Sequence record: OM313461
Length of the DNA: 52,936 nt
Strand: one strand, 5' to 3'
Origin: Escherichia phage vB_EcoM_PiR
The first letter of the stretch is position 1. Each line of letters starts with the position of its first letter. Shown here in pieces: positions 3,019-52,610 of the stretch. The position numbers were made by a program, and so were the translations under genes. The notes under the pieces are model-generated. The model saw only the letters and a program-made list of their open reading frames with translations, made no database searches and was not told where the DNA came from.

Positions 3019-3047
3019 TTTACTTTCGGTTTACCTGGCTATATAAT
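3019..3047 (+). promoter_or_regulatory. sigma70-like promoter TTTACT-N17-TATAAT
   Basis: -35 TTTACT at 3019-3024, 17-bp spacer, -10 TATAAT at 3042-3047; leaves a ~143-nt GC-rich leader before 3191. Confidence 0.5.
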
Positions 3048-3190
3048 CCTTCATGTCAACCGCGCAACAGCCGGCCACGAGAGTCTGCAGGGCTCAGTGG
3101 ATTTCGGATGGCTGGCTGCGCGGTTCGACCCAAACCTGTTCGGAGCCCACTTGAGTGGATTGAGCCCCTCTCATATAGGATTGTAAAATT

Positions 3191-3904
3191 ATGGCACTTA
3201 AAACAGTTGTAACTGACCTTACCGAAGTTGATGAAGGCTTCCGTGGCCTGTATATCAAAGACGAAGCATCTGGCGCATTCCGTTTGGACGTTGAACCAGA
3301 CGAAAAAACGCTGAAAGAATTAGAAGACCTGCGCAAAGAAAAACAGCGTATGGAACAGCACACCAAAAAGCTTCTCGAAGAAAAGAAAAAAGAAGCTGAA
3401 CGTGCTCGCCTGGCTGAAGAAGAACGCGCACGTCGTGAGCGTGATGTTGAATCTCTTGAGCGCTCTATCAAAGAGAAACATCAGGCTGAACTGGAACAGT
3501 ATACTAATCGTCAGGCACAGCTGCAAGCTCAGCTGGAAGCGCAAATGGTTGATAACCTGGCGCTGAACCTGGCTAACCAACTCTCTGACACCCCGGCACT
3601 TATTATGCCACACATCAAGGCCCGACTGCGCGCTCAGGAAATTGATGGTAAGTGGCGTACTACTGTCGTGGATGTTATGGGTAACCCGACTGCTACAACG
3701 CCAGATGAGCTAGTGGAACATATGCGCGCTGATAAGCAGTTTGCACCTCTTGTGCGTGGAACCAAGGCTGGCGGTGGCGGTGCCAACGGCGGCGGAGCTA
3801 ATCCTGGTGGGAACGGCGGTGGCGAACAGCACACTTTCGGAGGCGGGGACGACCGCATAGCACGTGCTCGTGCTAAAATCCAAAACACACAATGGGGCAA
3901 ATAA
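3191..3904 (+). CDS. scaffolding protein (probable)
   Basis: 237-aa highly charged E/K/R-rich coiled-coil-like protein with Gly-rich C-terminus, immediately upstream of capsid gene. Confidence 0.55.
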   Translation: MALKTVVTDLTEVDEGFRGLYIKDEASGAFRLDVEPDEKTLKELEDLRKEKQRMEQHTKKLLEEKKKEAERARLAEEERARRERDVESLERSIKEKHQAELEQYTNRQAQLQAQLEAQMVDNLALNLANQLSDTPALIMPHIKARLRAQEIDGKWRTTVVDVMGNPTATTPDELVEHMRADKQFAPLVRGTKAGGGGANGGGANPGGNGGGEQHTFGGGDDRIARARAKIQNTQWGK

Positions 3905-3907
3905 TTT

Positions 3908-4885
3908 ATGTCACTGTATATTTTTAACGAACAAGTACGTTCTACCGCCACCGAACTGGTCGACCAGGACGTACAGAAGTTTAACGAAGCTTCTGCTGGT
4001 ACCCTTATCCTGGGTAACCAGTACGTAATCGGTGATTACGTTGAGCAGGCAATGTGGCAGCTGGTTGACGGTATCGCTACTCGTCGTAACGCTTACGCAG
4101 GCACCAACAAAGTTGATGCGCAGACTCTGGGCCAGATTCTGGACCGTTCTGTTAAGATCGACGGCCGTGTTGGTCCTCTGAACATTACCGGTACTATGAT
4201 GCGTCGCATCGGTGCAGGTGATACTGAACCAGCAGCTGTTGTTGCTGCACAGGCTTCTGCTGCGATGTTCCAGGACTACCTGAACACCACTGCTGCATGT
4301 CTGGTAGCTGCTATCGGCGCAAACGCTGATGTTGTTCTGGACGTAACTGCAGGTTCCGGTGCTGCTGCAAACATCACTATGCAGAACCTGAACAAAGTAA
4401 ACGCTAAGATGGGTGACCGTTCTCAGCAGATTCGTGCATACATCATGCATTCTACTGCGTTCCACTCTCTCATCGACCAGGCCATCAACAACACGGAACA
4501 CCTGTTCCAGATTGGTGACCTGAACGTATACAAAGACTTCCTGGGTCGTCGTTATGTCGTTTCCGACATCCCGGCTCTGGTTGATGGCGCCGGTGCTTCC
4601 GCTAAGTACCGCACTCTGGGTCTAACCCCGTCTGCTGCAATCGTTCAGGTCGGCGGCCTGTACGATATGGTTACCTCCGAGCAAACCGGTGGTGAAAACA
4701 TCCTGCGTCAGATGCAGGGTGAATACGACTTCAACGTGTCGCTGAAAGGCTACAGCTGGGTCGGTCACAAAGCTGGTCAGTCTCCGACTGATGAAGACCT
4801 GGCTGCTCAAGCGTCCTGGTCTAAAGTTGCGACTTCCAACAAAGACACCGCTGGTGTTATGCTGCTGGCTAAGTCTGCAATCTAA
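3908..4885 (+). CDS. major capsid protein (probable)
   Basis: 325-aa ORF after scaffold gene; followed by strong intrinsic terminator and promoter. Confidence 0.6.
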   Translation: MSLYIFNEQVRSTATELVDQDVQKFNEASAGTLILGNQYVIGDYVEQAMWQLVDGIATRRNAYAGTNKVDAQTLGQILDRSVKIDGRVGPLNITGTMMRRIGAGDTEPAAVVAAQASAAMFQDYLNTTAACLVAAIGANADVVLDVTAGSGAAANITMQNLNKVNAKMGDRSQQIRAYIMHSTAFHSLIDQAINNTEHLFQIGDLNVYKDFLGRRYVVSDIPALVDGAGASAKYRTLGLTPSAAIVQVGGLYDMVTSEQTGGENILRQMQGEYDFNVSLKGYSWVGHKAGQSPTDEDLAAQASWSKVATSNKDTAGVMLLAKSAI

Positions 4886-4907
4886 CCCACAAACGGGACT
4901 AACAAAA

Positions 4908-4933
4908 GGCGAGCTGACGAGCTCGCCTTTTTT
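4908..4933 (+). terminator. rho-independent terminator
   Basis: perfect 8-bp stem GGCGAGCT/AGCTCGCC with 4-nt loop followed by TTTTTT. Confidence 0.8.
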
Positions 4934-4934: not shown

Positions 4935-4963
4935 TTTACACGTATAAAGTTCTGGTATATAAT
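4935..4963 (+). promoter_or_regulatory. sigma70-like promoter TTTACA-N17-TATAAT
   Basis: -35 TTTACA 4935-4940, 17-bp spacer, -10 TATAAT 4958-4963; GGAGG SD and ATG at 4990 downstream. Confidence 0.65.
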
Positions 4964-10392: not shown

Positions 10393-10421
10393 TTTACTTA
10401 ACCGAGGCGCCAGCCTATAAT
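10393..10421 (+). promoter_or_regulatory. sigma70-like promoter TTTACT-N17-TATAAT with embedded inverted repeat
   Basis: -35 10393-10398, -10 10416-10421; 8-bp perfect inverted repeat GCGCCAGC (10407-10414) / GCTGGCGC (10424-10431) flanks the -10. Confidence 0.55.
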
Positions 10422-10453
10422 AAGCTGGCGCACCCAATAAGAGGATTCTCCAG

Positions 10454-11103: not shown

Positions 11104-13233
11104 ATGTCGCTTCCACTTGATGAGGTTGTCGACGTCCAGTTCAGTAAGAGCAACGGGGGTAAAGGTTTTACCCCCAATGTTCCGCTGGAAGGCATAATGC
11201 TTTACAACTACGAGTACTCAATCGTTGCGGATGATGACCCTGTTCAGCTAGCTGTGCTCTACATTCCAACCAACGCTACGGAGCGTGGTATGGTATGGGA
11301 ATCTAGCGACTCAGACGTTATCACCGTTGATGAGCTCGGATTTGCAAAGCCGCTGGCGGAAGGTGTTGCATACGTGACTGGTACGTCTGTTGATGGCGGT
11401 TATACTGTACGAGCAAAGTTCAATGTTGCTCGAGCACCTATCCTTGTTGAATCTGTTACAGTGTCTCCCACAAGCGTGACACTTGAAGAGGGTAAGACTC
11501 AACGTCTGACATACACCTATTTACCTGCTAATGCAGACAAACCTGATTTTTACTGGATTTCAGATGACGAGGCTGTTGCTGTCGTTAGTGACAGCGGGCT
11601 TGTCACTGCCATTCTAGACGGTGAAACAACTGTAAGCGTACAGTACGGTATTGACAGTACTATATCTGATAGCTGTATCGTAACTGTTATTCCACCTATT
11701 GTACACGTTACAGGAGTTGAGTTTCTTACTCAGTCACCTCTTAACATTAATATCGGAAGCACAACTGAGACGAGTATTCGTGTATCGCCAGAAGACGCCA
11801 CTGACAAAACAGTGACGTACGAAAGCAGTGCGACTGATGTAGTAACTGTAGATACTGACGGAAATGTTACGGGTGTTATAGCTGGCAATGCCACTATTAC
11901 TGTTAAGACGAATGATGGTGATAAGACTGACACTCTTGATATTATAGTCAAGGAGGCTGTCGTAAATGTTACCGGTGTAAGTATTGATGAAGGCGCTACA
12001 GCTTCTATGGAGGTTGGTGACACGCTTCAGCTACATGCCACTGTGACTCCTGAAAATGCTACTGACCCGTCTGTTGTATGGAGTGCTCCTGTATCAGAAG
12101 TTGCGTCTGTGACTGAAGCTGGTTTGGTAACCGCTAACGCTGCAGGTTTAATTGATGTTACTGTTATCACTAATGATGGGAACTTTACTGATAGAATCGA
12201 GGTTAAAGTTACAGACCCCAGAATCGCAGTTACGGATGTTGCATGGGCTCCTGACTCTCCGACTAAAGTAAGACATGGCCATCAGGTGCAAACTAAAATT
12301 GTTATAACACCTGAAAAAGCAACCAATAAAAAAGTCAGTTACAACAGCTCAAACCCAGACGCTGTTACTGTTGACACTGATGGAGTTATATACGGTCAAT
12401 CTCCTGGAACTTCAACTATTACAGTTACAACAGACGACGGTGGACTTACTGCTTCGTTTATAGCTACTTGCACAGAAGTGGCTGTTATTACACCTGACGG
12501 TCTTGGCGGTATTCCAATCGGTGGCACCCAGCAGTTCACTTATACTGTTAGCCCGTCTGATGCTGAGCTAACTGATATTCGTTACGAATCTGCTAACCCA
12601 GCTATTGCAACTGTTGATTCGTCTGGCGTTGTAACTGGTGTTGCTAGCGGCGGATGTAATATCTGGATTTACGCAACTAGTAATGGTGCGGACATTAGCT
12701 CAGCTACTTGGGCACAAATTTCTGAGAGGGTTCAGGTATACCCGCAGTATGCTGAATGGCTTGTGGGTAACAACAAACAGCTTGATGTTGAGATTTATCC
12801 ATCGGACTCTAAGAGCGTTACCGTTACTTATAGCTCGTCAGATGATTCTGTAATTAGCATAGATGCAAATGGCTTGATGACTGCTAAGTCTGAAGGTTCA
12901 GCAACTATTACTGCTAACGTTGTAATGAACGGTGTTGCTGCTTCTGGTACAACATCTCCTTACGTGTCTGAGCTTTCTGTTACTACTGATTCGCTGCCTG
13001 CACTTACTGTTGGCAACACGCAGCAGCTGGTTGTAACTGTTAGACCTGAATACGCTAAGACAGACCCAGGCTATAACATTCAGTATACAACTACAGACGA
13101 TACTGTCGCTACTGTAAGTAATACCGGTGTTATTACTGGCGTTGGTAACGGTGGATGCCGTATTGGTGCCACAGTAACTGTGAGAAATGCTACAGCGTCG
13201 GACAGCTCTTATCAGTCCGTCGATGCAGCATAA
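11104..13233 (+). CDS. multi-repeat Ig-like (Big_2-type) domain protein
   Basis: about 7 repeats of the same Ig-like motif; track start 11101 is TTG, ATG at 11104. Confidence 0.75.
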   Translation: MSLPLDEVVDVQFSKSNGGKGFTPNVPLEGIMLYNYEYSIVADDDPVQLAVLYIPTNATERGMVWESSDSDVITVDELGFAKPLAEGVAYVTGTSVDGGYTVRAKFNVARAPILVESVTVSPTSVTLEEGKTQRLTYTYLPANADKPDFYWISDDEAVAVVSDSGLVTAILDGETTVSVQYGIDSTISDSCIVTVIPPIVHVTGVEFLTQSPLNINIGSTTETSIRVSPEDATDKTVTYESSATDVVTVDTDGNVTGVIAGNATITVKTNDGDKTDTLDIIVKEAVVNVTGVSIDEGATASMEVGDTLQLHATVTPENATDPSVVWSAPVSEVASVTEAGLVTANAAGLIDVTVITNDGNFTDRIEVKVTDPRIAVTDVAWAPDSPTKVRHGHQVQTKIVITPEKATNKKVSYNSSNPDAVTVDTDGVIYGQSPGTSTITVTTDDGGLTASFIATCTEVAVITPDGLGGIPIGGTQQFTYTVSPSDAELTDIRYESANPAIATVDSSGVVTGVASGGCNIWIYATSNGADISSATWAQISERVQVYPQYAEWLVGNNKQLDVEIYPSDSKSVTVTYSSSDDSVISIDANGLMTAKSEGSATITANVVMNGVAASGTTSPYVSELSVTTDSLPALTVGNTQQLVVTVRPEYAKTDPGYNIQYTTTDDTVATVSNTGVITGVGNGGCRIGATVTVRNATASDSSYQSVDAA

Positions 13234-13258: not shown

Positions 13259-13287
13259 TTTACTTGGTTAAACTTACTGAGTATAAT
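13259..13287 (+). promoter_or_regulatory. sigma70-like promoter TTTACT-N17-TATAAT
   Basis: -35 13259-13264, -10 13282-13287; inverted repeat CGGCCATT (13253-13260) / AATGGCCG (13285-13292) overlaps both hexamers; AAGAGG SD before ATG 13320. Confidence 0.6.
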
Positions 13288-18066: not shown

Positions 18067-18458
18067 TGATACTTACCACAACTGCTTTCCTCGACATTGT
18101 AGGTAACGATGGTTCTGGTATTTACGACTTGGAGCCTACCTCTGAAGGTAAGCAATCAATATCAATTTCTATCGCTGGATATACGTATAACATTGAGTTG
18201 TACTATAACACGGTAGGTCAGCTCTGGCAGGCTACAGTGACTGACCTATCAAGTAATGCTGTACTTTGTTCCAGTTATGCTTTACAATATGGGCGTATTG
18301 CTTTTGGTAACTGGGACACGCGTATAGCGTTGCTGGTAAGTGACAAATCCTCCAGCCGCATCGGTCCTATGACTACAGATGACATGGGAGGACGTTGCAA
18401 TGTCTACATCGTCGACAAAACAGCCTACCCGTCAGTTTGGCCGCGCGTTAAAGCTTGA
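18066..18458 (+). CDS. hypothetical tail protein
   Basis: ATG overlapping upstream TGA. Confidence 0.45.
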   Translation: MILTTTAFLDIVGNDGSGIYDLEPTSEGKQSISISIAGYTYNIELYYNTVGQLWQATVTDLSSNAVLCSSYALQYGRIAFGNWDTRIALLVSDKSSSRIGPMTTDDMGGRCNVYIVDKTAYPSVWPRVKA

Positions 18459-19359
18459 GGTCAGCAACGGTAAAGATGAAGGCATAATCATCTCAAATCT
18501 TCGTGTTACCTTTGACATTCAAAAGGGTAACACGAAGCATCCAAATAAAGCGACAATCACAGTGTTCAACTTGACTGAATCCAACCGTTATAAGTTGGCG
18601 GCAGGTACCTGGGATTACGTCCGTCTCTCTGTGGGTTACGGTCTTGACAACATAGTTTATCGTTTGATATTCGAAGGCGATATTACTCGTGCTAACGACC
18701 AACGAAACGGCCTTGACATTCAGACTGTTCTCGAATGTGGCGATGCCCGTAAATCTTACAACGATGGCTTTGTTAATACGACGCTGGCTGCTGGTTCTAC
18801 GTATGACAGTGTTGTTGACGTTTGCCTGGCTAGCATGCCAAACGTTGAAGAAGGGTACGTCTGCCTTGACAGCAACAAACCAGCTTTCCTGAGAGCACGT
18901 ACTCTGTTCGGACAAACGCACAGTGTACTGGACCAGGTTGCTGCTGCCAACAAGGCTACCTGGTCTATACAAGACAATAAGCTCAATATCATTCCTAACG
19001 ACTCTGTTACTGACTACGACGTTGTTGTGCTGTCAGAATCGTCTGGTATGATTGGTGCTCCTCGCGGCACAGACAAAGGTCTTGAGGTTACTTGCAACCT
19101 GAATCCTAGCCTGGCCATCGGTGGTCTTGTACAAGTAAATTCTATGTTTACACAGTACAACGGACAGTATAAAATCGACACTATAAGATTTCGGGGTGAC
19201 AATAAACCGAAAGGACCGTGGCGTGCTGACTTAACGGTTCTTGGCGGACAGTTCGCGAAGAAAGTTCGTCGACTCAAGAAGCCACGCAAACTGTCGAAGA
19301 TTGAGTACGACTACGTTACCGAACCCGGTGTTGACCATACAGTAGGCGGAGGTAGCTGA
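18400..19359 (+). CDS. baseplate hub / tail protein (probable)
   Basis: start re-assigned to ATG 18400 with GGGAGGA SD; position before spike and gp25-like genes. Confidence 0.45.
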   Translation: MSTSSTKQPTRQFGRALKLEVSNGKDEGIIISNLRVTFDIQKGNTKHPNKATITVFNLTESNRYKLAAGTWDYVRLSVGYGLDNIVYRLIFEGDITRANDQRNGLDIQTVLECGDARKSYNDGFVNTTLAAGSTYDSVVDVCLASMPNVEEGYVCLDSNKPAFLRARTLFGQTHSVLDQVAAANKATWSIQDNKLNIIPNDSVTDYDVVVLSESSGMIGAPRGTDKGLEVTCNLNPSLAIGGLVQVNSMFTQYNGQYKIDTIRFRGDNKPKGPWRADLTVLGGQFAKKVRRLKKPRKLSKIEYDYVTEPGVDHTVGGGS

Positions 19360-31397: not shown

Positions 31398-31426
31398 ATT
31401 ATACCACATCACTCTCTAGTGGTAAA
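31398..31426 (-). promoter_or_regulatory. sigma70-like promoter TTTACC-N17-TATAAT (minus strand)
   Basis: reverse complement of 31421-31426 is TTTACC and of 31398-31403 is TATAAT, 17-bp spacer. Confidence 0.55.
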
Positions 31427-32563: not shown

Positions 32564-32592
32564 AATATACGTCATTTAAAAGAGAGTGTAAA
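32564..32592 (-). promoter_or_regulatory. sigma70-like promoter TTTACA-N17-TATATT (minus strand)
   Basis: reverse complement of 32587-32592 is TTTACA and of 32564-32569 is TATATT. Confidence 0.55.
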
Positions 32593-34500: not shown

Positions 34501-34558
34501 TTAACGTCTCCTCATTAACTTCATATATTATACCACTTCCTTGTGGTGATGTATACTT

Positions 34559-36585: not shown

Positions 36586-36615
36586 ATTATACGCCACTTT
36601 TTATCATGGCGTAAA
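36586..36615 (-). promoter_or_regulatory. sigma70-like promoter TTTACG-N18-TATAAT (minus strand)
   Basis: reverse complement of 36610-36615 is TTTACG and of 36586-36591 is TATAAT. Confidence 0.5.
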
Positions 36616-36620
36616 CACTT

Positions 36621-37735: not shown

Positions 37736-37795
37736 ATTCTCTCTCCTCATGTGTATAGAGGTATTATACACCACTTACATGGGGTAAGTACACTA

Positions 37796-39196: not shown

Positions 39197-39310
39197 TTCT
39201 TGTTTCCTTGTATACCAGTTTGATTGTATGCCAGAGACATTCCCTGCGCATGTGCTTTATTGCTTAACCGTTAAAGACATTATATCATTAGTGAGTGGTG
39301 ACGTACACAT

Positions 39311-40244: not shown

Positions 40245-40288
40245 GTAAGTCTCCAAAAGTCAAGGGGCTTGTGCTAAGCCCCGTCTAA

Positions 40289-40738: not shown

Positions 40739-41009
40739 CAGTTGTTTCCTCAGGTTGCATGTGCATAGTTGCACCAATTAGTAGACAATAGTTATTGAAC
40801 ATTGTACGTAGTGCCTGGCCCGCAACAATATCCGTTATGTCTATTATACCACTTTTAGTGGTGACGCGTAAAGCTTTTTCTTTCTTTGTTTTTTCCACGA
40901 ATGCAATGCTGATGATTTCTTCCGCATGTATTACGTGGATAGTACCTGCAAACTCACCAGTCTTAGCTGGTGCCTGGTACACTAACGACATAGACGGTTG
41001 GTTACTCAC
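40641..41009 (-). CDS. hypothetical protein (GTG start)
   Basis: GTG 41009 preceded by AGGAG; 3' end overlaps start of next gene in another frame. Confidence 0.4.
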   Translation of the reverse strand: MSNQPSMSLVYQAPAKTGEFAGTIHVIHAEEIISIAFVEKTKKEKALRVTTKSGIIDITDIVAGQALRTMFNNYCLLIGATMHMQPEETTDGTEPTRTGIDGHGTAVRQAGESEPLDGTGES

Positions 41010-41019
41010 TTAATTACTC

Positions 41020-41488: not shown

Positions 41489-41517
41489 ATTATGTATATA
41501 AAGGAGGGGAAAGTAAA
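41489..41517 (-). promoter_or_regulatory. sigma70-like promoter TTTACT-N17-CATAAT (minus strand)
   Basis: reverse complement of 41512-41517 is TTTACT and of 41489-41494 is CATAAT; divergent from plus promoter at 41551. Confidence 0.5.
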
Positions 41518-41550: not shown

Positions 41551-41580
41551 TTTACTCTGGTTTAATAACGTGTATATAAT
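41551..41580 (+). promoter_or_regulatory. sigma70-like promoter TTTACT-N18-TATAAT
   Basis: -35 41551-41556, -10 41575-41580; AAGAGGAGAGA SD before ATG 41611. Confidence 0.55.
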
Positions 41581-44452: not shown

Positions 44453-44463
44453 GTAAGTAAATC

Positions 44464-44505
44464 AAGGGCTTGGGTAATTGTAAAAATCCTAAGCCCTTAT
44501 TTTTT
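44464..44505 (+). terminator. rho-independent terminator
   Basis: 11-bp stem AAGGGCTTGGG/CCTAAGCCCTT (one G-U), 13-nt loop, then ATTTTTT. Confidence 0.65.
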
Positions 44506-44619
44506 AAGCTTATTTTACAAACTGATTAATATTTAAACTATAATTAAATATATGGGCTCTAAGAGTATGATTTTATTACTCTTTTACAAATCATAATATA
44601 TGAGCTCCTTATAAAAGAT

Positions 44620-44835
44620 TAAGGGGGTAAAAAAGGGGGATACAAGAACCGGATAAAGGGGGTATATATTTATTTATTATTATTATTATTATTATATATT
44701 ATTAATTATATTAGAAGTAATAAAAACAGCTACTTAGAGGCGTCTATATGTATGATCCGGTTTATCTCTTTATTAATATCAGAACCGGATGAAAAAAATT
44801 TACGCTGGTGAAAAAAATAAAAAAGCCGGATTGAT
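44620..44835. repeat. AT-rich iteron cluster (putative replication origin)
   Basis: three AAGGGGG(T/A) copies (44620-44665), ACCGGAT-type motif four times in both orientations (44647, 44753, 44782, 44825), (ATT)n microsatellite 44671-44695. Confidence 0.5.
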
Positions 44836-44852
44836 AAATAAATCTGTAGACG

Positions 44853-44881
44853 TTTACACTGTAAAAAAGATGTGCTACAAT
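44853..44881 (+). promoter_or_regulatory. sigma70-like promoter TTTACA-N17-TACAAT with extended -10 TG
   Basis: -35 44853-44858, TGCTACAAT at 44873-44881. Confidence 0.6.
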
Positions 44882-44935
44882 ATTTATCAATGTTGCTGAT
44901 TACCAAAACTTTGAATTGTATACGAGGCTGAATAA

Positions 44936-45367
44936 ATGGTTAATATAAGACAGAAAGGACAGAACTTTGAGCGTAAAATGGCTAAGAAGTTTAATAGCTC
45001 GTTCGGATTAACTGTTGAGCGCAATCTTCAACAGTCTATTAATGGCGGGGATGACTTGTTGGGTGTGCCGTTTTTCAGCGTTGAACTGAAGAAGCACAAG
45101 ACCAAGTCTATCGGAACATGGTGGAGACAGTGTGCGGCATCGGCAAAGGCTCAGAACAAGATGCCAGTGCTTATATACGAACTACCAAGAAAACAGCCTA
45201 CCGTGGTGATGAATAAGGCTGATGTGATTGACTGTTTTCCAAGTGGCACGACTTTTAACGAGGCATCGAACCGCCTCTTTGTGGGTTTAGTAGAATTAAC
45301 ATGGGAACAATTTTGCCGGGTCTACAACTATTACGTTGCGCCCGGCACTCAATATCACGTCAATTAA
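44936..45367 (+). CDS. hypothetical protein, possibly a small nuclease/resolvase-like protein
   Basis: 143 aa basic protein with GAGG SD; function guess is weak. Confidence 0.5.
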   Translation: MVNIRQKGQNFERKMAKKFNSSFGLTVERNLQQSINGGDDLLGVPFFSVELKKHKTKSIGTWWRQCAASAKAQNKMPVLIYELPRKQPTVVMNKADVIDCFPSGTTFNEASNRLFVGLVELTWEQFCRVYNYYVAPGTQYHVN

Positions 45368-45549
45368 TCTTGTTTCAGCTCGTCACAAATGACATGCTGA
45401 TTTTTGGCAGGGATAATACCAAGATTTAGTAAGGTGTATGGACTATCGGCGACACATTGTTCAACGGTAGTCCATTCAGGTTTGGATTCAACAATTTTGT
45501 AACTACAATCATGAGTAGCCACACATGTTGCCAGGATTAAGCCAATCAC
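45364..45549 (-). CDS. small protein with hydrophobic N-terminus (GTG start)
   Basis: GTG 45549 preceded by AAGGTGA and overlapping upstream TGA (GTGA). Confidence 0.45.
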   Translation of the reverse strand: MIGLILATCVATHDCSYKIVESKPEWTTVEQCVADSPYTLLNLGIIPAKNQHVICDELKQD

Positions 45550-45686
45550 AAGTAATCACCTTCAACCAGGAACTCAAACAATTGGTTGTAAACGTTGCAA
45601 CCTTTAGCGAAAGAGCTTTCAGCAGGTTTACCATCGCGGACGATCATCATATACTCACCGCCATGGATGTCCACCCAGTATTGCAT
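45546..45686 (-). CDS. small ORF (46 aa), not in track
   Basis: ATG 45686 just after AGGTGG; stop overlaps GTG start of next gene; fills gap in tightly packed early operon. Confidence 0.35.
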   Translation of the reverse strand: MQYWVDIHGGEYMMIVRDGKPAESSFAKGCNVYNQLFEFLVEGDYL

Positions 45687-45724
45687 GCCACCTTTGACCG
45701 GATTACGTTGTAAGAATTTAAACA

Positions 45725-45970
45725 TTATTTGCTCCTGATTCCAAGTTTATTCAATAGCCACACTGTCATGTCAACCCAGGTTAACGGTACAGTTTTCGGG
45801 GGTTGATAATCCCAGCAGCTTGCAGTTCTTTGTATTTCTGCTTGGCGCCGCTCCGCTTCGCGTAATACCGCATCGTCAGAAGTGCCGGCAGAAAAAAGAT
45901 CGGTAACACCAGATAAATCGCGTTGATTAACACGTCGAGCAATGTCATATAAATCTTCCTTAGAAAGCAT
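45725..45970 (-). CDS. hypothetical protein
   Basis: 81-aa ORF with ATG start. Confidence 0.5.
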   Translation of the reverse strand: MLSKEDLYDIARRVNQRDLSGVTDLFSAGTSDDAVLREAERRQAEIQRTASCWDYQPPKTVPLTWVDMTVWLLNKLGIRSK

Positions 45971-46085
45971 AAGTTAATACCATAATAATTACCAGAAAAA
46001 CCGCTACCAGTTTACTCATGTACCGGCCTTCAGCATATGCAGGATTCACAACAGAATACTCAACAACATGTTTACGGCGGACCAT
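45960..46085 (-). CDS. small hydrophobic peptide ORF (41 aa), not in track
   Basis: ATG 46085 preceded by GGAGG; C-terminal LVAVFLVIIMVLTYAF transmembrane-like segment. Confidence 0.35.
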   Translation of the reverse strand: MVRRKHVVEYSVVNPAYAEGRYMSKLVAVFLVIIMVLTYAF

Positions 46086-46197
46086 AAGGCCTCCACTTGT
46101 GGGTTAATTCAAGCATGAGGACTTTCATCAAATCCTCAGGATTGAATTAATTACCAGCTTTTAATCAAGCCCTGTCAGCGCCAGGACTTGAAAAAGA

Positions 46198-46398
46198 TCA
46201 CTCAATCATTATCTGTACTACTATTATACACTCTTTATTGAAGCGGGTAAACACCTTTCCTCCATTTGTGCGTTTAGCCCCAGATTTTAGAGCTGACTGG
46301 CACCAGACATTCCATTCCTCAACTGTCAAGAATTTTTGCTCAGCTTTGGGTGGTAGTCCATTGGCAAGGTCTACCGTAGTAAATTTGACTAGTGGCAT
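46198..46398 (-). CDS. hypothetical protein
   Basis: TAATG overlap with upstream gene. Confidence 0.5.
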   Translation of the reverse strand: MPLVKFTTVDLANGLPPKAEQKFLTVEEWNVWCQSALKSGAKRTNGGKVFTRFNKECIIVVQIMIE

Positions 46399-46787
46399 TA
46401 CTTGACCTCAAATTTTGACTCGTCATATTCCGGATCAGTCACGTCCCGGGTAGCACAATTTTTGATTGCCTCCCAGTAACGTTGGGCATCATCGCCATCG
46501 ACATAAACTGTCCAGTGGCCGTAACCACCTTCAAATCTGTCCCAGGCTTGTTCCCAGACTTTGCCATCTTCCAGCTTGTACCAAGTTGGACGACTGTCAA
46601 ACTCGCGGATTGGATGGTACCCCAATAAAGGATTCATGATGTCAATAATGTCTGCCCTGCCAATCTCCTGGTTTTCCCACAAGATTGTCATGAATTGCTC
46701 AAACTTAAAAGCGTTTGGCAGAACTTTGATGACTTCACCATCACAATATACGGTATAGGTGCCATCTTCGCATTTTGCACTGTACAT
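46398..46787 (-). CDS. hypothetical early protein
   Basis: start re-assigned to ATG 46787 with AGGAGAGAGAAAC spacer. Confidence 0.55.
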   Translation of the reverse strand: MYSAKCEDGTYTVYCDGEVIKVLPNAFKFEQFMTILWENQEIGRADIIDIMNPLLGYHPIREFDSRPTWYKLEDGKVWEQAWDRFEGGYGHWTVYVDGDDAQRYWEAIKNCATRDVTDPEYDESKFEVK

Positions 46788-46855
46788 GTTTCTCTCTCCT
46801 ATTGATATAATTTCAATCATGAACTATCACAACTTTGGATAGTTCATTGTTGAAA

Positions 46856-47029
46856 TTATACTAACTTTGTTACAATCTGAATTGTCAGCCGGAAGTCTTC
46901 CATCAAGTTATCAAACTCTTTGGAACCACCAACCGCATCAGCTATTTGATCTTTCACAATTTGGGCATTTGATTCCAGTAATTCAATCAGGTGCGCCAAT
47001 TCGTCTTCAGTCAATTTCAGGTCTTTCAT
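46856..47029 (-). CDS. small early protein, paralog family member 1
   Basis: ATG 47029 (GGTGGA SD, ATGA overlap); N-terminus MKDLKLTEDELAHLIELLE resembles 47289-47447 and 48144-48317. Confidence 0.55.
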   Translation of the reverse strand: MKDLKLTEDELAHLIELLESNAQIVKDQIADAVGGSKEFDNLMEDFRLTIQIVTKLV

Positions 47030-47283
47030 AATGTATCCACCCAAGCCATAACTTTTGCCAGTCTTACAACGTCTTCATGGTCCCGCTCGCCATCAGAAAA
47101 TTCGCTGGCGATGATACCCATAATTGACGCCAGATTCATGTTGATGATGTAGGCGTGTTGGCGCACTTCATCAATTCCTGAATCTATCACCAGTTCCGCA
47201 AATTCCTGCGAACCTTCATCCCATTCAGCCCAATACTGCTCGGCATAAAAGTCCAGTTCTTTTTTCATCTCAATGTCAGTCAT
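47026..47283 (-). CDS. small highly acidic protein
   Basis: GAGGAG SD; strongly acidic composition. Confidence 0.55.
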   Translation of the reverse strand: MTDIEMKKELDFYAEQYWAEWDEGSQEFAELVIDSGIDEVRQHAYIINMNLASIMGIIASEFSDGERDHEDVVRLAKVMAWVDTL

Positions 47284-47288
47284 TTTGA

Positions 47289-47447
47289 TTACTCCTCAGA
47301 ACTTGAAAATTTGTCATCAATGGACTCAACAATATAATCAAGAGTTGAAGTGTGAGAACTATCAGAAAAAGTGCCCATCTTCTCCAGCTCAATCATCATA
47401 TCCCGTAAAGCCATTGCCTGGTCTTTGGTCAGTTTAATTTTAAGCAT
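47289..47447 (-). CDS. small early protein, paralog family member 2
   Basis: ATG 47447 after CAGGAGAGAAAC; N-terminus MLKIKLTKDQAMALRDMMIELE. Confidence 0.55.
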   Translation of the reverse strand: MLKIKLTKDQAMALRDMMIELEKMGTFSDSSHTSTLDYIVESIDDKFSSSEE

Positions 47448-47511
47448 GTTTCTCTCCTGTTGATTGTGAATAATTTCAATTGATGGCACTACTTGAGTGC
47501 CATCTCAAAAA

Positions 47512-48048
47512 TTACTCTTCAGTTTCTTGGGTTTCAGGTTTTTGACCAGTTACTGACTTGCCATCAGTCACTTTACCAGATTTTACATCATTCCGGTAGT
47601 ATGACATATATGACTGGATAACTCTTTTGGCTTTGATGTCATCCGCCTCCATCCCACAGGCTTTCATGGCATCAACTAGGGCCAGTTTGGAATCTTCTTT
47701 ATCCATCAGGTTGTAATCTTTGAACACCAGATAACAAGTATCTTTTGTTGATGGACCAGATGACTTCCGGGCCCCACCATTGGAAGATCTTGATGCCACA
47801 ACTTTGACCTCTTCAACTTCCAGTTGGTTCAGTTCATCAAACAATGCCTTGACCAACACTTCTTTGGAGTCCTTGACACTTACAGTACTTTCATCATTAA
47901 GGGACTTAATCATCTTAATGATCTGGTTGTTGGCAAAGTACTGAAGACTATCCATCTGCACTACAATAGTCCCAAGACTTTCAGTAGTCAGACCAGATTT
48001 TACAGACTCAACAGAAAAGGCGGAAGTCAGGTAAACATAGTTAGTCAT
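47512..48048 (-). CDS. hypothetical early protein
   Basis: start re-assigned to ATG 48048 with GAGGA SD. Confidence 0.55.
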   Translation of the reverse strand: MTNYVYLTSAFSVESVKSGLTTESLGTIVVQMDSLQYFANNQIIKMIKSLNDESTVSVKDSKEVLVKALFDELNQLEVEEVKVVASRSSNGGARKSSGPSTKDTCYLVFKDYNLMDKEDSKLALVDAMKACGMEADDIKAKRVIQSYMSYYRNDVKSGKVTDGKSVTGQKPETQETEE

Positions 48049-48143
48049 TGATGTATCCTCATTGATAGAATTTTTGATAAGTGTCAATCCTTGACAAGTA
48101 AGTCCAATCATGAGGACTTTTACCAAGTCCCCATTGTTGGAAA

Positions 48144-48317
48144 TTACTTCAACTTATCCAGAATTGATTGGAGTAACTTGACCCTCACTTCCTGGTCTTT
48201 GACATCCCTTCCACTCTCCCTGTCATATTCCAACAGGTCACTTTCCATAAATAAAGTAGTGTCCAATTGGTCAACCAATAATTCCAGTTCTTCTTGGGAC
48301 AATTCTAAAACTTTCAT
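48144..48317 (-). CDS. small early protein, paralog family member 3
   Basis: ATG 48317 after CAGGAG; N-terminus MKVLELSQEELELLVDQLD. Confidence 0.55.
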   Translation of the reverse strand: MKVLELSQEELELLVDQLDTTLFMESDLLEYDRESGRDVKDQEVRVKLLQSILDKLK

Positions 48318-48321
48318 CTTA

Positions 48322-48468
48322 TTACTCCTGATATTTAATAACTTGGGATTGGATAAAGTCAACACAATCTTCCACATCCATTGACTCAAAGTCTGGAACT
48401 GGACCATTGTTTATATTGACACACCAAAGCCCTTCATTGGTATCATACCAAAGTGTGTAGTTGTCCAT
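48322..48468 (-). CDS. small early protein (first gene of AT-rich block)
   Basis: ATG 48468 after AGAGGTG; track start 48525 is GTG. Confidence 0.5.
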   Translation of the reverse strand: MDNYTLWYDTNEGLWCVNINNGPVPDFESMDVEDCVDFIQSQVIKYQE

Positions 48469-48834
48469 CTTAATAGTCACCTCTTGTACTAGTTTCCAGT
48501 TGTGACTACTGTTACCAATAGTCACTGGTTGAAACTATTACTAGTGTTACTATCAACAAGAAACATGTTACCAGATTGTTAAAGAGCAAAAGGTACCATT
48601 GACATCTACCAGATGTACCTGTTGACTGGTTAAGTACTACCTACCCAAATTAAACCATACTAATACCCTCCAGACCAGTTGACTGGTCACTTGGTCATCA
48701 CATTCAATAAATATATAATAGTCCAATCCCTCTTGATTGTACACCTTATATTTGTAAGTTTATGCAAGTTTTTAGAAATGATAATCACTTGCGATTGAGA
48801 GTGGTTCTCGTATGCTATTGATATAGTTTCGCAT

Positions 48835-49098
48835 GTAATTACTCAACTCAAAATGGTCGGCAGGGGTTATAATCACATAGGGGTGCCACTTAAAGGAGCC
48901 GGCGAAATTATTTATAAAAATATAATTTCAATCTGAAGTATAGACGCTTTGTGTTATAACGGCCGAAGTAGTTCATACGGTAATTGTATCAATCACAATA
49001 GTTACCAGCGTAATCATTTCAATCGAAATAGGTGCGGCGGGGGTAATTTCGCAAGGGTGCTACCCACCAGGAGTCAGCGGAATTTTTTTATTTTTTGG
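48835..49098. repeat. duplicated ~85-bp non-coding element (two full copies plus a partial copy)
   Basis: copy 1 48835-48915 and copy 2 49010-49098 share GTAAT...CAA..AAAT.GGT.CGGC.GGGG...AGGGTGC.AC...AGGAG.C.GCG.AATT-T-run; partial copy at 48979-49006. Confidence 0.5.
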
Positions 49099-49307
49099 TA
49101 TTTTTGCCTTATCAGGACCAATCATCATCAGATTGATACAATAGGAGCTAACCTTTTGCCTAACACAATAATAAGTGAAGCCCCTCTAAAATTTTTTTTT
49201 ATATTTTTCGGAAATTGTGTAGACACTCACTAAAAAGTGGTGTACTTTCTCTCCTCCACGCGCTATCATTAATGTGAATCATCAAACGGCCTCACGGTCT
49301 CCTACTT

Positions 49308-49805
49308 ATGGGTAACATTATGAAAATTGTTCAATTAGAGCCATATCCGCCTCAATTGGCTATCGTTTGCAGCGAAAAAGAGCACCAGGAGCTCCAAAAG
49401 CTGATGGATTTGCCTGATTTTGGCAACTGGAATGACCGGGAAACGCGTAATGCGTCTACTTTTACGTTCACTCGCGTTAACTATCCGTACCTGTTAATCG
49501 TCGTCGAACTGTACCACCCGGACGACCTGAAGTACAACACCATTTCCCACGAAGGCATTCACGTAATGTCGTCGCTGATGAACTATGTAGGGCTTAAATA
49601 CGACCCAGAAAACGATGAATGGTACGCATATCAGCACGATTTCATCGTAAATGCCATTTGTAAGGCCCATGATGAGTACCTGGAGCGCAAAAAAGCGCCA
49701 AAACATAAGCCAAAAATCGAAACAGGCAATCATCCTGTGATACTGCCACAAGACGTTATGAACTCGCTTTTGACTGACACTACTGGGGACTTTTTAGGTG
49801 ATTGA
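49308..49805 (+). CDS. HExxH-motif protein (putative metallopeptidase-like)
   Basis: 165 aa containing SHEGIHV. Confidence 0.45.
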   Translation: MGNIMKIVQLEPYPPQLAIVCSEKEHQELQKLMDLPDFGNWNDRETRNASTFTFTRVNYPYLLIVVELYHPDDLKYNTISHEGIHVMSSLMNYVGLKYDPENDEWYAYQHDFIVNAICKAHDEYLERKKAPKHKPKIETGNHPVILPQDVMNSLLTDTTGDFLGD

Positions 49806-50307
49806 AATACTCCGTAAGTATTTTCGCTATGAGCCAGACACAGGCTTATTGTACAGAATACGACAGGCTAAAACAGGTAAACGAGTCGATATGAGCCAGC
49901 CTGTAGGCACGGAACATAGCGGTTATCTGTTTTGCAGTGTACCAGAAGGCATTCGTACAAAGCCTGTGCACGTAATCTGCTATGCTTTACAAACTGGCGA
50001 ACTACCTGAAGTAGTTGACCATAAAGATGGTAACGGGCTTAACAACAAATGGTACAACCTTCGTAACGGTACTCAAACGCAGAACCGGTATAACTCAAAA
50101 GTCAAATCAAGTAACACAACAGGCGTAAAAGGCTTGTTTGAGTACGCACCAAAAGGTCGTAAACCTCTTTGGAAAGCCAGCATTAAAGTAGATGGAGTCA
50201 ATCATCAGAAGTATTTCCCTTATACTGATAACGGTAGGCTGGAAGCTATTGAGTGGCTTGACGAACAAAGACATCAACATGGCGAATTCGCCAACAAAGG
50301 AAATTAA
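49798..50307 (+). CDS. HNH homing endonuclease with AP2-like DNA-binding domain
   Basis: VDHKDGNGLNNKWYNLR...TQTQNRYN HNH motif; C-terminal AP2-like region; GTG start with weak RBS. Confidence 0.7.
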   Translation: MIEILRKYFRYEPDTGLLYRIRQAKTGKRVDMSQPVGTEHSGYLFCSVPEGIRTKPVHVICYALQTGELPEVVDHKDGNGLNNKWYNLRNGTQTQNRYNSKVKSSNTTGVKGLFEYAPKGRKPLWKASIKVDGVNHQKYFPYTDNGRLEAIEWLDEQRHQHGEFANKGN

Positions 50308-50308
50308 T

Positions 50309-50983
50309 ATGATAAACCTAATCTTTGCAATGGGCCAAAATGGGGAATTCGGGTTGTCCCCGGAGTTTATGAAGCATCAGGTGGACTCGTGTAAGACTAT
50401 GGAAGAGGTCCGTGCGCTTCCTAAGTCTGGTTTACCATGGAAGTGTCCGTCAGATATGCTCTTTTTCAGGACTATGACTAATTCAATTGCGTCAGAACCA
50501 GGCTATAATGCGTATCAGCAACTACGGGGACAGTTCCCAAGTGACCAGTTGCGAAACATGATAGCTGATGTAACGGTAAAAATGGTTGGGCATAGCGTAT
50601 TGTTAGCCGGTCGTAAAACGTTTATGACTATGAGTCTGCCTATGTCAGCCCACCGAATACTGCTGCCGGTATCTCGTCAGATTATGGCTTCAGAAGGCTA
50701 CAACAATATAGGTGAGTTGGCAGCAGCACTTGAAGACCGTGGTTCAGATGTTTGGATTGTTGGCGGTGCACAGTTAATACTTGCGGCTCTTGAAGAGCAT
50801 GCCAAAGGTACACTCCGTGTTGACAACATGTTTATCAGCACAATCAAAGAAGCAGGTCCAAGTGATATATTAATGGACCGTAGCAAATTAATGATGTACA
50901 TTGATAGCGACTTCACTTATAATGATGAATATGTTGATAACAAATCTGTGCTGATACAGCGTTACCGGAGTGTACAGCAATGA
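50309..50983 (+). CDS. dihydrofolate reductase (with internal insertion)
   Basis: start ATG 50309 (AAGGA SD); DHFR-like motifs MINLIFAMGQNGEFG, LPW, VGHSVLLAGRKTF, VWIVGGAQL. Confidence 0.65.
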   Translation: MINLIFAMGQNGEFGLSPEFMKHQVDSCKTMEEVRALPKSGLPWKCPSDMLFFRTMTNSIASEPGYNAYQQLRGQFPSDQLRNMIADVTVKMVGHSVLLAGRKTFMTMSLPMSAHRILLPVSRQIMASEGYNNIGELAAALEDRGSDVWIVGGAQLILAALEEHAKGTLRVDNMFISTIKEAGPSDILMDRSKLMMYIDSDFTYNDEYVDNKSVLIQRYRSVQQ

Positions 50984-51486
50984 ATATCATAGTTGAGGGA
51001 CCTGACAATGCTCGTAAATCTACACTTATTAAGTTCCTTGAACCTCATCTTGGCCGCAGCATTATTCATAATACTGTTGACAAAGATGCCGAATCGGTCA
51101 TGGCTAAACAGGCCAAAGAAAACGCGCTCGAAGGCAATAGTATTTACGACCGTAGCGCTGTTATATCTGAGTATATCTATTGCATGGTTCTTCAACGTAC
51201 GCCTGTCATCAATATTAATGTATCACATGTAGCAGATATGTGTGACAACGCCATCGTTATCTTTTGTATGCCGCCTATTGAAAAGGTACTGGCGACTACA
51301 AAAGAAGAGATGCCTGGTGTTGTGGAAAATCTTGAGGCGTTATACAACCAGTATGACAACCTCATTGACGAACTGGTTATGATGGGCAAGCAGTTCTTTA
51401 TTTACGACTGGACTGCTGAAGAAAATGGCCCAGAAGCAGTTCTCGAATACATCAACGAACGTATTAATAAGGAGTGGAACAAATGA
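50980..51486 (+). CDS. P-loop-like nucleotide kinase with degenerate Walker A (possible dNMP kinase)
   Basis: IVEGPDNARKSTL resembles thymidylate-kinase P-loop but second Gly replaced by Arg; ATGA overlap with DHFR stop. Confidence 0.35.
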   Translation: MNIIVEGPDNARKSTLIKFLEPHLGRSIIHNTVDKDAESVMAKQAKENALEGNSIYDRSAVISEYIYCMVLQRTPVININVSHVADMCDNAIVIFCMPPIEKVLATTKEEMPGVVENLEALYNQYDNLIDELVMMGKQFFIYDWTAEENGPEAVLEYINERINKEWNK

Positions 51487-52175
51487 GCCCAGTATACAAT
51501 ACCTCAGTCACGCTGTCAGCAACCGTAGGGGACGTCAACAAGACTGTTACTGTGGGTTCAACTAACCCGAACCTGTCAGGCGAAGACCTGCTACGCCTGG
51601 CCAAACGTGCTCTTGAAGATAACGAAGTGACTGGTACTGAAGGCGTTAACATTGAAATTAACGTCGAAGGGTGTCCACACAGCATCAGCATTGCGACTTC
51701 TGGCGATGAAATTGAAAAGTTCAACGACGAGCTGGAATATCGTACCGGTGAGATGTTCAGCAGTGCGCTAAACTGGTACTTGTGCAAGGCTTCAAACTAC
51801 GCTGGCGCTCCTATGTCAGACCGTATGTTAGCTGATATGTCTGCACGTGAAATTGCTAAAGGCTGGGCGCATGTACAGATGCTGCAGGAGCATATCTGCA
51901 AGCTGGAAAGCTGCAATAAAGACGCGTCTGAGCTTATTACTGCCTATAAGCGACAGATTAACGACCTGCAGCAACTGATGGGCAAACGCGCTGAAGAATA
52001 TGAGGCTGAGATTCGTAGTCTTAACGGTACGGCTGTTGCTAACAACCGTGCTTTCAGCGAAGAGCGTAAAGCGCTTATTGCCCAGCGTGACGCTGAAAAA
52101 CGTCGTGCAGACGACCTAGCAAACCGTCTTAATTTTATCCGTAAACACATGGAACACATGGATGGAGTAATCTGA
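51483..52175 (+). CDS. hypothetical protein with C-terminal coiled coil
   Basis: ATG 51483 with AAGGAG SD; track start 51474 is GTG. Confidence 0.5.
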   Translation: MSPVYNTSVTLSATVGDVNKTVTVGSTNPNLSGEDLLRLAKRALEDNEVTGTEGVNIEINVEGCPHSISIATSGDEIEKFNDELEYRTGEMFSSALNWYLCKASNYAGAPMSDRMLADMSAREIAKGWAHVQMLQEHICKLESCNKDASELITAYKRQINDLQQLMGKRAEEYEAEIRSLNGTAVANNRAFSEERKALIAQRDAEKRRADDLANRLNFIRKHMEHMDGVI

Positions 52176-52465
52176 TGGACTTGTTCGATATGGTCGAACA
52201 TCCTGAAGTAAACGGCTTGGCGGAAGCTAAGCCATTTAACTGGGATGAATTCGTAGCAGGCAAACCTGCTGTAACCCACAATGGGCAGATTGCATATTAC
52301 GGAGGCCATAGCGAACATCCGATGTGCACTCACCTGTACAACGCTATCACAACCATAGCCGACGAAAACGTTATTAAATACGGAAAAGATGTAATGCCTT
52401 TTCTTGTAGATGAGCGCGGTTACTTCGAAGGTAAATGGTTCCCGTTTCTGGTAGAAATGGCCTAA
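52175..52465 (+). CDS. hypothetical protein
   Basis: ATGA overlap with upstream stop. Confidence 0.5.
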   Translation: MDLFDMVEHPEVNGLAEAKPFNWDEFVAGKPAVTHNGQIAYYGGHSEHPMCTHLYNAITTIADENVIKYGKDVMPFLVDERGYFEGKWFPFLVEMA

Positions 52466-52581
52466 AAACCGGATAAATATAAAGGCGTCTAAGTTAGTTC
52501 TTCATCTATATAAGCTACTTATTCGCCTTTCTACTGTAGACTTTCTCATCATCTCTCTAGACACTTCATTTTTATATTCTG

Positions 52582-52610
52582 TTTACTTACTTCGCGTAAC
52601 TCGTTATAAT
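52582..52610 (+). promoter_or_regulatory. sigma70-like promoter TTTACT-N17-TATAAT
   Basis: -35 52582-52587, -10 52605-52610; ACCGGAT-type motifs at 52469-52475 and 52617-52623 nearby. Confidence 0.6.

Follow-up and report, generated by a model that had tools for sequence, protein, structure and literature searches.

The promoters described here, a recurrent class of σ70-like elements in the genome of Escherichia phage vB_EcoM_PiR (sequence record OM313461), are of a known kind, being a further case of the TTTAC type represented by the early promoters of phage T4 and by the lacUV5 promoter. The wild-type lac promoter has the form TTTACA-N18-TATGTT. In the middle promoters of T4, which are used through appropriation of σ by AsiA and MotA, the MotA box (a/t)(a/t)(a/t)TGCTTtA is centred at -30 and separated from the -10 element by 11-13 bp. 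The -35 element of T4 early promoters is GTTTAC, which spans positions -36 to -31 with a T at -33, and is accompanied by A-rich sequence from -40 to -44 and by a GT-rich stretch 5' of -12 (PMC1524935). These promoters are read by host RNA polymerase (RNAP) in its unmodified form and without phage factors (PMC2988021). The lac promoter (Plac) combines its TTTACA box with an 18-bp spacer (PMC2613000).

Within the clade of vB_EcoM_PiR, the available part of the report on Loughboroughvirus S144 describes a phage without its own polymerase and reliant on that of the host, names a zinc-finger protein of the DksA type that might act as a modulator and lists 18 generic σ70-like promoters predicted with PhagePromoter; that part mentions no resemblance to T4, no TnTAC rule and no lack of TTGAC, nor the footprint across genera or the two sub-types described below (PMC7432712).

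The stretch analysed here (the window, 52,936 bp) is the complete genome of a Rosemountvirus, a myophage of ~53 kb that infects Salmonella and E. coli. The window carries 21 sites that share a T-N-T-A-C box, a 17-18 bp spacer and a -10 element close to TATAAT (Table 1). On the sequence evidence presented below, these sites are likely, with a probability of roughly 0.85, to be functional σ70 promoters of the phage that are read by the host RNAP holoenzyme containing σ70 (Eσ70).

Definition of the element and its excess over chance

A sequence-only reading of the window had described eleven or more sites with TTTACT or TTTACA at -35, a spacer of 17 bp, sometimes 18 bp, and a near-consensus -10. 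All eleven listed sites are present. Their spacer is N18 at 36586(-) and 41551 and N17 otherwise, and their -10 is TATAAT save for TATATT at 32564, CATAAT at 41489 and TACAAT at 44853, each one base off. Nine of them have TTTACT or TTTACA, the other two being TTTACC, at 31398(-), and TTTACG, at 36586(-). Compared with dinucleotide-preserving shuffles of the window, exact TTTACW-N17/18-TATAAT occurs six times versus 0.05 expected, TTTACW-N17-TATAAT with one mismatch 13 times versus 0.73, and exact TNTAC-N18-TATAAT ten times versus 0.14. Seven sequences in the window are one mismatch away from TTGAC-N18-TATAAT, and all of them share the identical G-to-T change.

A listing of every good -10 in non-coding DNA that made no assumption about the -35 region revealed a second group of sites, in which GTGTAC or GTATAC lies equally far upstream. 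Among -10 elements of the window matching at least five of six positions, TTTAC lies at -35 in 12 intergenic and three coding positions and TTGAC in none; zero cases of TTGAC before a good -10 were likewise found in Salmonella phage ZCSE2 and Erwinia phage SOI901. The core rule is T-N-T-A-C, a 17-18 bp spacer and TATAAT, in which the second base of the -35 box varies between T, G and A and the sixth is free. The earlier description of the -35 as non-canonical thus holds for the T in place of G at the third base, while TTTACw is too narrow as the defining motif.

A genome-wide search of the kind that the sequence-only reading had proposed was made with a weight matrix trained solely on sites from two other phages, and hence independent of the window, at a threshold of at least 14 bits. 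It returned 21 sites versus 0.4 expected, including all of the original eleven. The ten additional sites are 34527(-), 37763(-), 39279(-), 40843(-), 46223(-), 48715(-), 49241(+), 50895(+), 18260(+) and 19147(+), many of which use TGTAC or TATAC. All 21 are oriented as the local genes, with the next gene start 27-247 nt downstream, and 17 of them fall within the non-coding DNA, which amounts to 4850 nt (9.2%) of the window; the remaining four (18260, 19147, 40843 and 50895) lie inside annotated open reading frames (ORFs). The -10 is TATAAT in 14 sites and a 5/6 match in the other seven, and the spacer measures 17 bp in 16 sites and 18 bp in five. As in σ70 promoters, the -10 is near TATAAT, the -35 box matches TTGACA at four or five of six positions in register, and the placement is upstream of genes and co-oriented with them. 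Together, these ~21 promoters would head every transcription unit of the genome.

Conservation across three genera

The same grammar is found before the same genes in ZCSE2 (Loughboroughvirus, ~76% nucleotide identity) and SOI901 (~72%). Across 52 sites in 18 orthologous groups from the three genera, the composition of the -35 box is T52, T32 G18 A2, T52, A52, C52 and A26 T15 G6 C5 at positions 1 to 6, respectively, although these sites were chosen by motif in each genome, which makes the set circular for identity at the core positions. Orthologues swap TTTAC, TGTAC and TATAC freely: TTTACT of R1 (41551) in the window corresponds to TGTACA in ZCSE2, the box of M8 is also TGTACA in that phage, and the orthologues of M3 carry TGTACG and TGTACT. 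Other features are retained. The N18 spacer of R1 and the CATAAT of M8 are found in all three genomes, in which E3 is also kept, and TTTACC and most of the spacer of M1 are common to the window, ZCSE2 and SOI901. The internal candidates at 18260 and 19147 are present in both ZCSE2 and SOI901, and that at 50895 is identical in ZCSE2, the conservation of all three being confounded by coding constraint.

An unbiased footprint was obtained from sites ascertained in the window only, their counterparts being located by BLAST through the flanking genes and aligned with MAFFT (30 pairwise alignments). Identity at positions 1 to 6 of the -35 box is.97,.73,.97, 1.0, 1.0 and.47, and.90-1.0 in the -10, compared with.55-.80 in spacers and flanks, a pattern that shows purifying selection on precisely the bases of the hexamers in all three genera. 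At closer range, only two of the 1549 differences between the window and Escherichia phage JEP7 (MT764207) are located within the 252 hexamer positions, both of them at the free position 6. Five relatives from IMG/VR with at least 75% identity in the sheath protein have TTTAC[AT]-N17-TATAAT upstream of the sheath gene, at a distance of exactly 33 nt. No comparable promoters were found in distant IMG/VR sheath relatives (33-47% identity, GC content 0.55-0.70), so the grammar belongs to this enterobacterial clade and is not traceable beyond it.

These data bear on whether the sites might stem from duplication of a mobile promoter cassette, or be chance and compositional matches. Two sites have a cassette-like arrangement, with an intrinsic terminator hairpin directly upstream: one at 4904-4931 (+), immediately 5' of the S3 -35 at 4935, and one at 31481-31454 (-), directly before the M1 -35 at 31426. 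The earlier claim that promoters sit directly after terminators stands for these two tandems (4908/4935 and 31446/31398), but its "several" reduces to two of the 21 sites. That low number speaks against a cassette, as do spacers and flanks that differ from site to site within one genome (outside the hexamers, 0-0.5 bits per position) and the positional orthology of each site across three genera. As for chance, shuffled controls give 0.05-0.4 sites. Both versions are effectively refuted by the shuffles and the footprint.

Comparison with known promoter systems

The phage sites share with T4 early promoters the T at -33, TTTAC as the dominant box, the 17-bp spacing and the near-perfect -10, which in T4 is TAtAAT. 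Those of the replication and small-gene modules additionally match in the A-rich tract, at about -38 to -48 (-42 in T4), in having G at -36 and in a GTGG-like sequence that precedes the -10. When the matrix from the Rosemountvirus group was applied to positions 1-50000 of T4, 13 sites of at least 14 bits were recovered versus 0.45 expected (30-fold). The T4 RefSeq record contains no promoter features, and the matches were assessed from their strand and from the first gene that follows them: all 13 are on the early-gene strand, just before motB, motB.2, modB, srd, dmd, sp, imm.1, rIIA.1 and mrh.2. TTTAC precedes good -10 elements 17 times in this T4 segment, versus two for TTGAC.

The differences from T4 are nevertheless several. 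The window belongs to an unrelated 53-kb Rosemountvirus. For 72 proteins, 30 of them structural and 42 non-structural, scans against Pfam and PHROG, from which the best 25 families per scan were taken (25 of 55 for PHROG), gave no RNAP, σ factor, anti-σ factor, AsiA, MotA or ADP-ribosyltransferase among the matches listed; Pfam families beyond the best 25 are no stronger than the weakest of those listed (E about 0.009 and 0.002). Homologues of the T4 transcription factors are therefore absent from these matches, as is an Alt-like ADP-ribosyltransferase among both the virion and the non-structural proteins; in T4, early promoters are active immediately upon infection and are stimulated by Alt, which is injected. 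Position -34, which is kept as T in T4 early promoters, is free here (T, G or A), and in the structural sub-type the discriminators are GC-rich and no UP-like tract is present. Finally, the same grammar heads the structural, presumably late, genes, while those of T4 use the gp55-dependent late promoter TATAAATA. The class is thus not "early" as such. The likeness to phage early promoters that the sequence-only reading had noticed extends to the architecture and not to a restriction to early genes, since the replication, structural and small-gene modules are all headed by these sites.

With lac, the TTTACA box is identical and the core of lacUV5 (TTTACA-N18-TATAAT) is shared with sites 4935 and 41551, the phage design as a whole being one base removed from it. 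Lac, however, stands alone as a promoter of the host, controlled by CRP and LacI; it lacks TGTAC and TATAC variants and is not a genome-wide, clade-conserved phage class. T4 middle promoters resemble the phage sites in that a phage-specific sequence replaces the -35 region beside an excellent σ70 -10, and differ in the distance of the box from the -10 (17-18 bp in the phage sites) and in its sequence, in addition to the lack of MotA and AsiA among the matches listed. Unlike T7-like promoters, conservation is concentrated in two hexamers rather than in ~20 contiguous bp, the spacer holding 0-0.5 bits per position, and no phage polymerase is among the listed matches. Nor are these T4-type promoter-stem-loop cassettes, given the hairpin at only two of 21 sites and flanks that are not paralogous.

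Recognition by the host RNA polymerase

Three aspects point to unmodified host Eσ70 as the reader: a canonical -10 element, its distance of 17-18 bp from the -35 and the occurrence of the same box before the units presumed to be expressed first. The identity between the phage box and that of lac likewise indicates that host Eσ70 reads it (PMC2613000). Host σ70, which had already been suggested as the reader by analogy with phage early promoters, is thus supported by excess over chance, placement, footprint, T4 cross-recognition and the lack of a phage polymerase or σ factor among the matches listed. In the proposed mechanism, σ region 2 would recognise the near-perfect -10 and σ region 4 a deliberately sub-consensus -35, with always T and never G at -33, while contacts of the α subunit C-terminal domain (α-CTD) with UP sequence and contacts with TGn would add strength in the replication and small-gene modules. 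The complete grammar would comprise an optional A-rich UP-like tract from about -38 to -48, (G/A)-T-N-T-A-C-N, a spacer of 17 (18) bp whose 3' end is often GT-rich or TGn, and TATAAT. We infer that Eσ70 starts transcription 6-9 nt past each -10 element, and relative strengths and times of firing likewise.

Several points weigh against this assignment to host Eσ70. A literature search found no start-site, RNA sequencing or in vitro transcription data for this phage group (Rosemountvirus). The TGTAC and TATAC boxes match TTGACA at four of six positions, with the usually well-conserved T at -34 replaced, which is unusual for σ70, and another factor could help to read them. A single σ70 grammar in all modules also leaves early and late timing unexplained, and, considering the best 25 families per scan, a novel polymerase-modifying factor is possible among the small early proteins without recognised domains.

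In one alternative, host RNAP would read the promoters only, or much better, after a phage factor had altered it, perhaps by remodelling σ region 4 or the α-CTD, as in ADP-ribosylation by T4 Alt or σ appropriation by AsiA and MotA, so that the invariant T at -33 and the free -34 would reflect an altered specificity. This would agree with T, and not G, at -33 in 52 of 52 sites over three genera and with the unusual freedom at -34; the T at -33 in T4 has been linked to Alt-modified polymerase (PMC1524935), and the 45.3-48.5 kb cluster of the window encodes many small proteins of no known function. We consider this alternative very unlikely. Neither an ADP-ribosyltransferase, AsiA or MotA nor a σ-like domain appears among the listed matches for virion and non-structural proteins, the -10 and spacing are canonical, and unmodified Eσ70 reads TTTAC boxes in T4 early promoters and in Plac (PMC2988021, PMC2613000). 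Moreover, the presumptive first-expressed units E1-E3 share the box, and unmodified polymerase must therefore be able to read it.

Only one protein related to transcription was found among the matches listed, a TraR/DksA-family C4 zinc-finger protein (PF01258, 6e-10; PHROG 54, 6e-18) that matches the F-plasmid TraR structure 6n57_M over residues 25-72 (E=1.4e-6) and whose product is annotated as hypothetical in JEP7 and as a DksA-like zinc-finger protein in ZCSE2. It probably reprograms the host polymerase as lambda Orf73 does, and could be a modulator of the promoters described here. Proteins of the TraR family bind to the secondary channel of the polymerase, not to DNA, and act through promoter kinetics (PMC9239242), so the TraR homologue cannot explain the -35 sequence rule. 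The earlier proposal of tuning by a phage factor therefore finds no support as far as a DNA-sequence-specific factor is concerned.

A broader, quite doubtful idea starts from the strict exclusion of G at -33 and the free -34, a pattern seen in 52 sites of three phage genera and shared with the unrelated T4, which might be more than a setting of promoter strength. It could mark a general phage strategy, in which infection alters RNAP so that host promoters with TTGACA are disfavoured while TnTAC promoters keep firing. The agent could be an unrecognised small early protein acting on σ region 4 or the α-CTD, or the TraR homologue acting on promoter kinetics. If so, the UP-rich, AT-discriminator and the UP-less, GC-discriminator sub-types would, in this clade, time early versus late expression without a phage σ factor or dedicated late activator.

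Two sub-types with a shared core

The promoters share one core and come in at least two flavours, so that the single promoter class suggested by the sequence-only reading holds for the core and gives way to sub-types when the A-tract and discriminator are considered. In the structural promoters S1-S5 (52582, 3019, 4935, 10393 and 13259), the -35 is always TTTAC[AT] (14/14 instances), whereas M1-M8, of the replication module, have T[T/G/A]TAC. The GC content of the discriminator, which in S1 is CCCGAC, averages 0.69 in the structural and 0.31 in the replication promoters (p=0.004 when group means, with five structural groups, are compared by the Mann-Whitney test), and the upstream A fraction is 0.29, a weak A-tract, versus 0.53, a strong one (p=0.019). 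In the replication and small-gene modules, position -36 is G, and gtgg or TGn often precedes the -10. These flanking traits of T4 early promoters (G at -36, A-tract, GT-rich or TGn sequence) are therefore found in the replication and small-gene promoters, with A columns as high as 2 bits, and are absent in the five structural ones.

The two flavours might represent kinetic sub-classes under one -35 grammar, with the TraR homologue, or host DksA and guanosine tetraphosphate (ppGpp), together with supercoiling, setting the temporal order. The differences in discriminator and upstream composition and the presence of a gene for a TraR homologue favour this idea, as does the ability of TraR-family proteins to raise or lower initiation through promoter kinetics without binding DNA, lambda Orf73 being known to raise phage yield (PMC9239242). 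The known action of TraR and DksA is, however, to inhibit promoters with GC-rich discriminators, which would repress rather than activate the structural genes; besides, the comparison includes only five structural promoter groups. As an account of timing it is unlikely, though less so than remodelling of σ region 4 or the α-CTD, and it complements recognition by host Eσ70 rather than replacing it. GC-rich structural discriminators and the TraR homologue as the basis of timing constitute a lead, still unproven.

Genome organisation and catalogue of sites

The window is co-linear base for base with JEP7, from which it differs by 1549 substitutions and no insertions or deletions, and the JEP7 gene coordinates therefore apply directly to it. 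Length and gene coordinates are identical, and the divergence is 2.25% in non-coding and 2.99% in coding DNA; in the first gene, up to position 1275, all differences checked fall at third codon positions. A divergence of ~3% without insertions or deletions is unusual for natural isolates. Phage vB_EcoM_IntR is 99.5% identical to the window across the first 20 kb. The coordinates of promoters and gene modules are collected in Table 1.

Table 1. Putative promoters, the TraR homologue and the gene modules of the window.
Feature	Sequence or product	Position	Strand	Score (bits)	Context
S1	TTTACT-N17-TATAAT	52582..52610	+		33 nt before gene 52643; terminase large-subunit gene follows across the circular junction; orthologues ZCSE2 (49698), SOI901
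S2	TTTACT-N17-TATAAT	3019..3047	+		144 nt before gene 3191; orthologue SOI901 (29416)
S3	TTTACA-N17-TATAAT	4935..4963	+		27 nt before gene 4990; orthologues ZCSE2 (1398), SOI901
S4	TTTACT-N17-TATAAT	10393..10421	+		33 nt before gene 10454; also in IMG/VR relatives
S5	TTTACT-N17-TATAAT	13259..13287	+		33 nt before tail sheath gene 13320
Candidate internal promoter	TGTACT-N17-TACAAT	18260..18288	+	20.8	in coding sequence 18066-18458, before baseplate gene 18400
Candidate internal promoter	TTTACA-N17-TAAAAT	19147..19175	+	15.2	in coding sequence 18400-19359, before gene 19359
M1	TTTACC-N17-(TGg)TATAAT	31398..31426	-		27 nt before gene 30973-31371
M2	TTTACA-N17-TATATT	32564..32592	-		49 nt before gene 32048-32515; A-rich upstream tract; orthologues TGTACA
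M3	TATACA-N17-(TGg)TATAAT	34527..34555	-	32 (top)	27 nt before helicase gene 32830-34500
M4	TTTACG-N18-TATAAT	36586..36615	-		73 nt before gene 35968-36513
M5	TGTACT-N18-TATAAT	37763..37792	-		28 nt before gene 37505-37735
M6	TGTACG-N17-TATAAT	39279..39307	-		83 nt before gene 38291-39196; orthologues TATACA, TGTACA
M7	TTTACG-N18-(TGg)TATAAT	40843..40872	-	25.9	105 nt before gene 40289-40738; inside ORF JEP7_50
M8	TTTACT-N17-CATAAT	41489..41517	-		32 nt before gene 41020-41457; divergent partner of R1
R1	TTTACT-N18-TATAAT	41551..41580	+		31 nt before gene 41611, then primase/helicase gene
R2	TTTACA-N17-(TGc)TACAAT	44853..44881	+		55 nt before gene 44936
E1	TTTACC-N17-TATAAT	46223..46251	-		138 nt before gene 45960-46085, small-gene cluster; orthologue ZCSE2
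E2	TGTACA-N17-TATTAT	48715..48743	-		247 nt before gene 48322-48468; leftward arm of 839-bp divergent control region
E3	TGTACT-N17-TATCAT	49241..49269	+	26.4	39 nt before gene 49308; rightward arm of divergent control region
Candidate internal promoter	TGTACA-N17-TATAAT	50895..50923	+	23.8	in coding sequence 50309-50983, 57 nt before gene 50980
TraR homologue	TraR/DksA-family C4 zinc-finger protein, 74 aa	26001..26225	-		last gene of replication-module operon
Module	packaging, structural and lysis genes	1-25985	+
Module	replication and nucleotide metabolism genes	26001-41457	-
Module	primase/helicase and neighbouring genes	41611-45367	+
Module	small genes of unknown function	45364-48468	-
Module	genes leading back into terminase gene	49308-52933	+

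The ORF that contains M7, JEP7_50 (40641-40991, -), overlaps JEP7_49 by 98 nt, and the ZCSE2 counterpart of the site is intergenic; this ORF may be mis-annotated or spurious.

Non-coding regions around the promoters

The large gaps were checked for other classes of RNA or promoter; a search of the window for transfer RNA (tRNA) genes gave none, and Rfam no family at the gathering score. Several of these regions have distinctive features, which are described in the order of the map.

Between S2 and gene 3191 lies an unusually long leader of ~140 nt (3048-3190), which over its initial 40 nt shows strong conservation in SOI901 (tcaaccgcgcaa...gccggccac..gagtctgcagg), suggesting a structured leader or an unannotated small gene. 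The -10 of S4 is flanked by an 8-bp perfect inverted repeat, GCGCCAGC/GCTGGCGC (10403-10437), which is retained in ZCSE2, while SOI901 has another palindrome, AGCCAG ... CTGGCT, in its place. The repeat could serve as an operator, or could form a hairpin in transcripts that read through from upstream. A ~96-nt segment (13079-13174) close to the end of gene 11104-13233 shows isolated matches of 74-76% nucleotide identity to the unrelated 150-kb coliphages anhysbys, nepoznato, AV126 and dw-ec, with no feature annotated under the match in two of the records. This may be a small shared or mobile segment.

On the minus strand, the transcribed 570-bp non-coding region 31482-32047, between gene 32048-32515 and the terminator preceding M1, contains four long inverted repeats in tandem (31526-31627, 31622-31704, 31704-31802 and 31927-32016), with arms of 22-25 nt that are 84-91% complementary and loops of 37-52 nt. 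The RNA folds at -242 kcal/mol, far more stably than shuffled sequences (z = -11). The region holds a sequence resembling a tRNA T-arm, GGTTCGATTCC; ARAGORN detected no tRNA in it and Rfam no family. In SOI901, tRNA-Gln and tRNA-Pro occupy the orthologous gap. The region may thus contain a series of structured non-coding RNAs or decayed tRNA genes.

Just past the primase/helicase gene, the AT-rich 483-bp gap 44453-44935 includes a (TAT)n run (~44673-44700), two copies of GAT(T/A)AAGGGGGTA (44617 and 44652) and the related AAAAAAGGGGGAT, and looks like a replication origin with iterons. R2 is located in this gap, between the arms of a perfect inverted repeat of 11 bp, ATTGATAAATA/TATTTATCAAT (44830-44840 / 44881-44891). 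Finally, the largest non-coding region, of 839 bp (48469-49307), separates the divergent E2 (-) and E3 (+) units and contains a 29-nt inverted repeat at 48483-48544. Within the 247-nt leader of E2, the 14-bp near-palindrome ACC(T/A)GTTGACTGGT occurs twice (48617 and 48674), and a different palindrome, GTTGAACAATTCAAC, is found at that position in ZCSE2, which suggests an operator or hairpin of co-varying sequence.

Of the other strings considered, the palindrome ATTGA-N7-TCAAT, an apparent repeat in the small-gene cluster, has three matches versus two expected and was rejected, and a longer motif seen near several promoters, TAGACGCC, occurs 23 times versus 30 expected, with no enrichment. TGTAGAC, also near several promoters, is mildly enriched in non-coding DNA (five of ten copies).

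Implications for the phage group

The peculiarity of T4 early promoters, T at -33, recurs in an unrelated lineage in which no Alt was detected, which argues against its dependence on ADP-ribosylated polymerase and makes these short promoters a convenient second system in which to study the avoidance of the consensus G by phages. Conceptually the gain is modest, short of the discovery of a factor that modifies the polymerase or of a timing mechanism based on the discriminator. Several phages of this group are under development against Salmonella and E. coli, and their published annotations offer machine-predicted promoters only. For Rosemountvirus, Loughboroughvirus and their relatives, the sites form a curated, evolution-backed transcription map with ~21 putative promoters and two promoter-adjacent terminators, whose practical value lies in annotation and in the choice of promoters for engineering.

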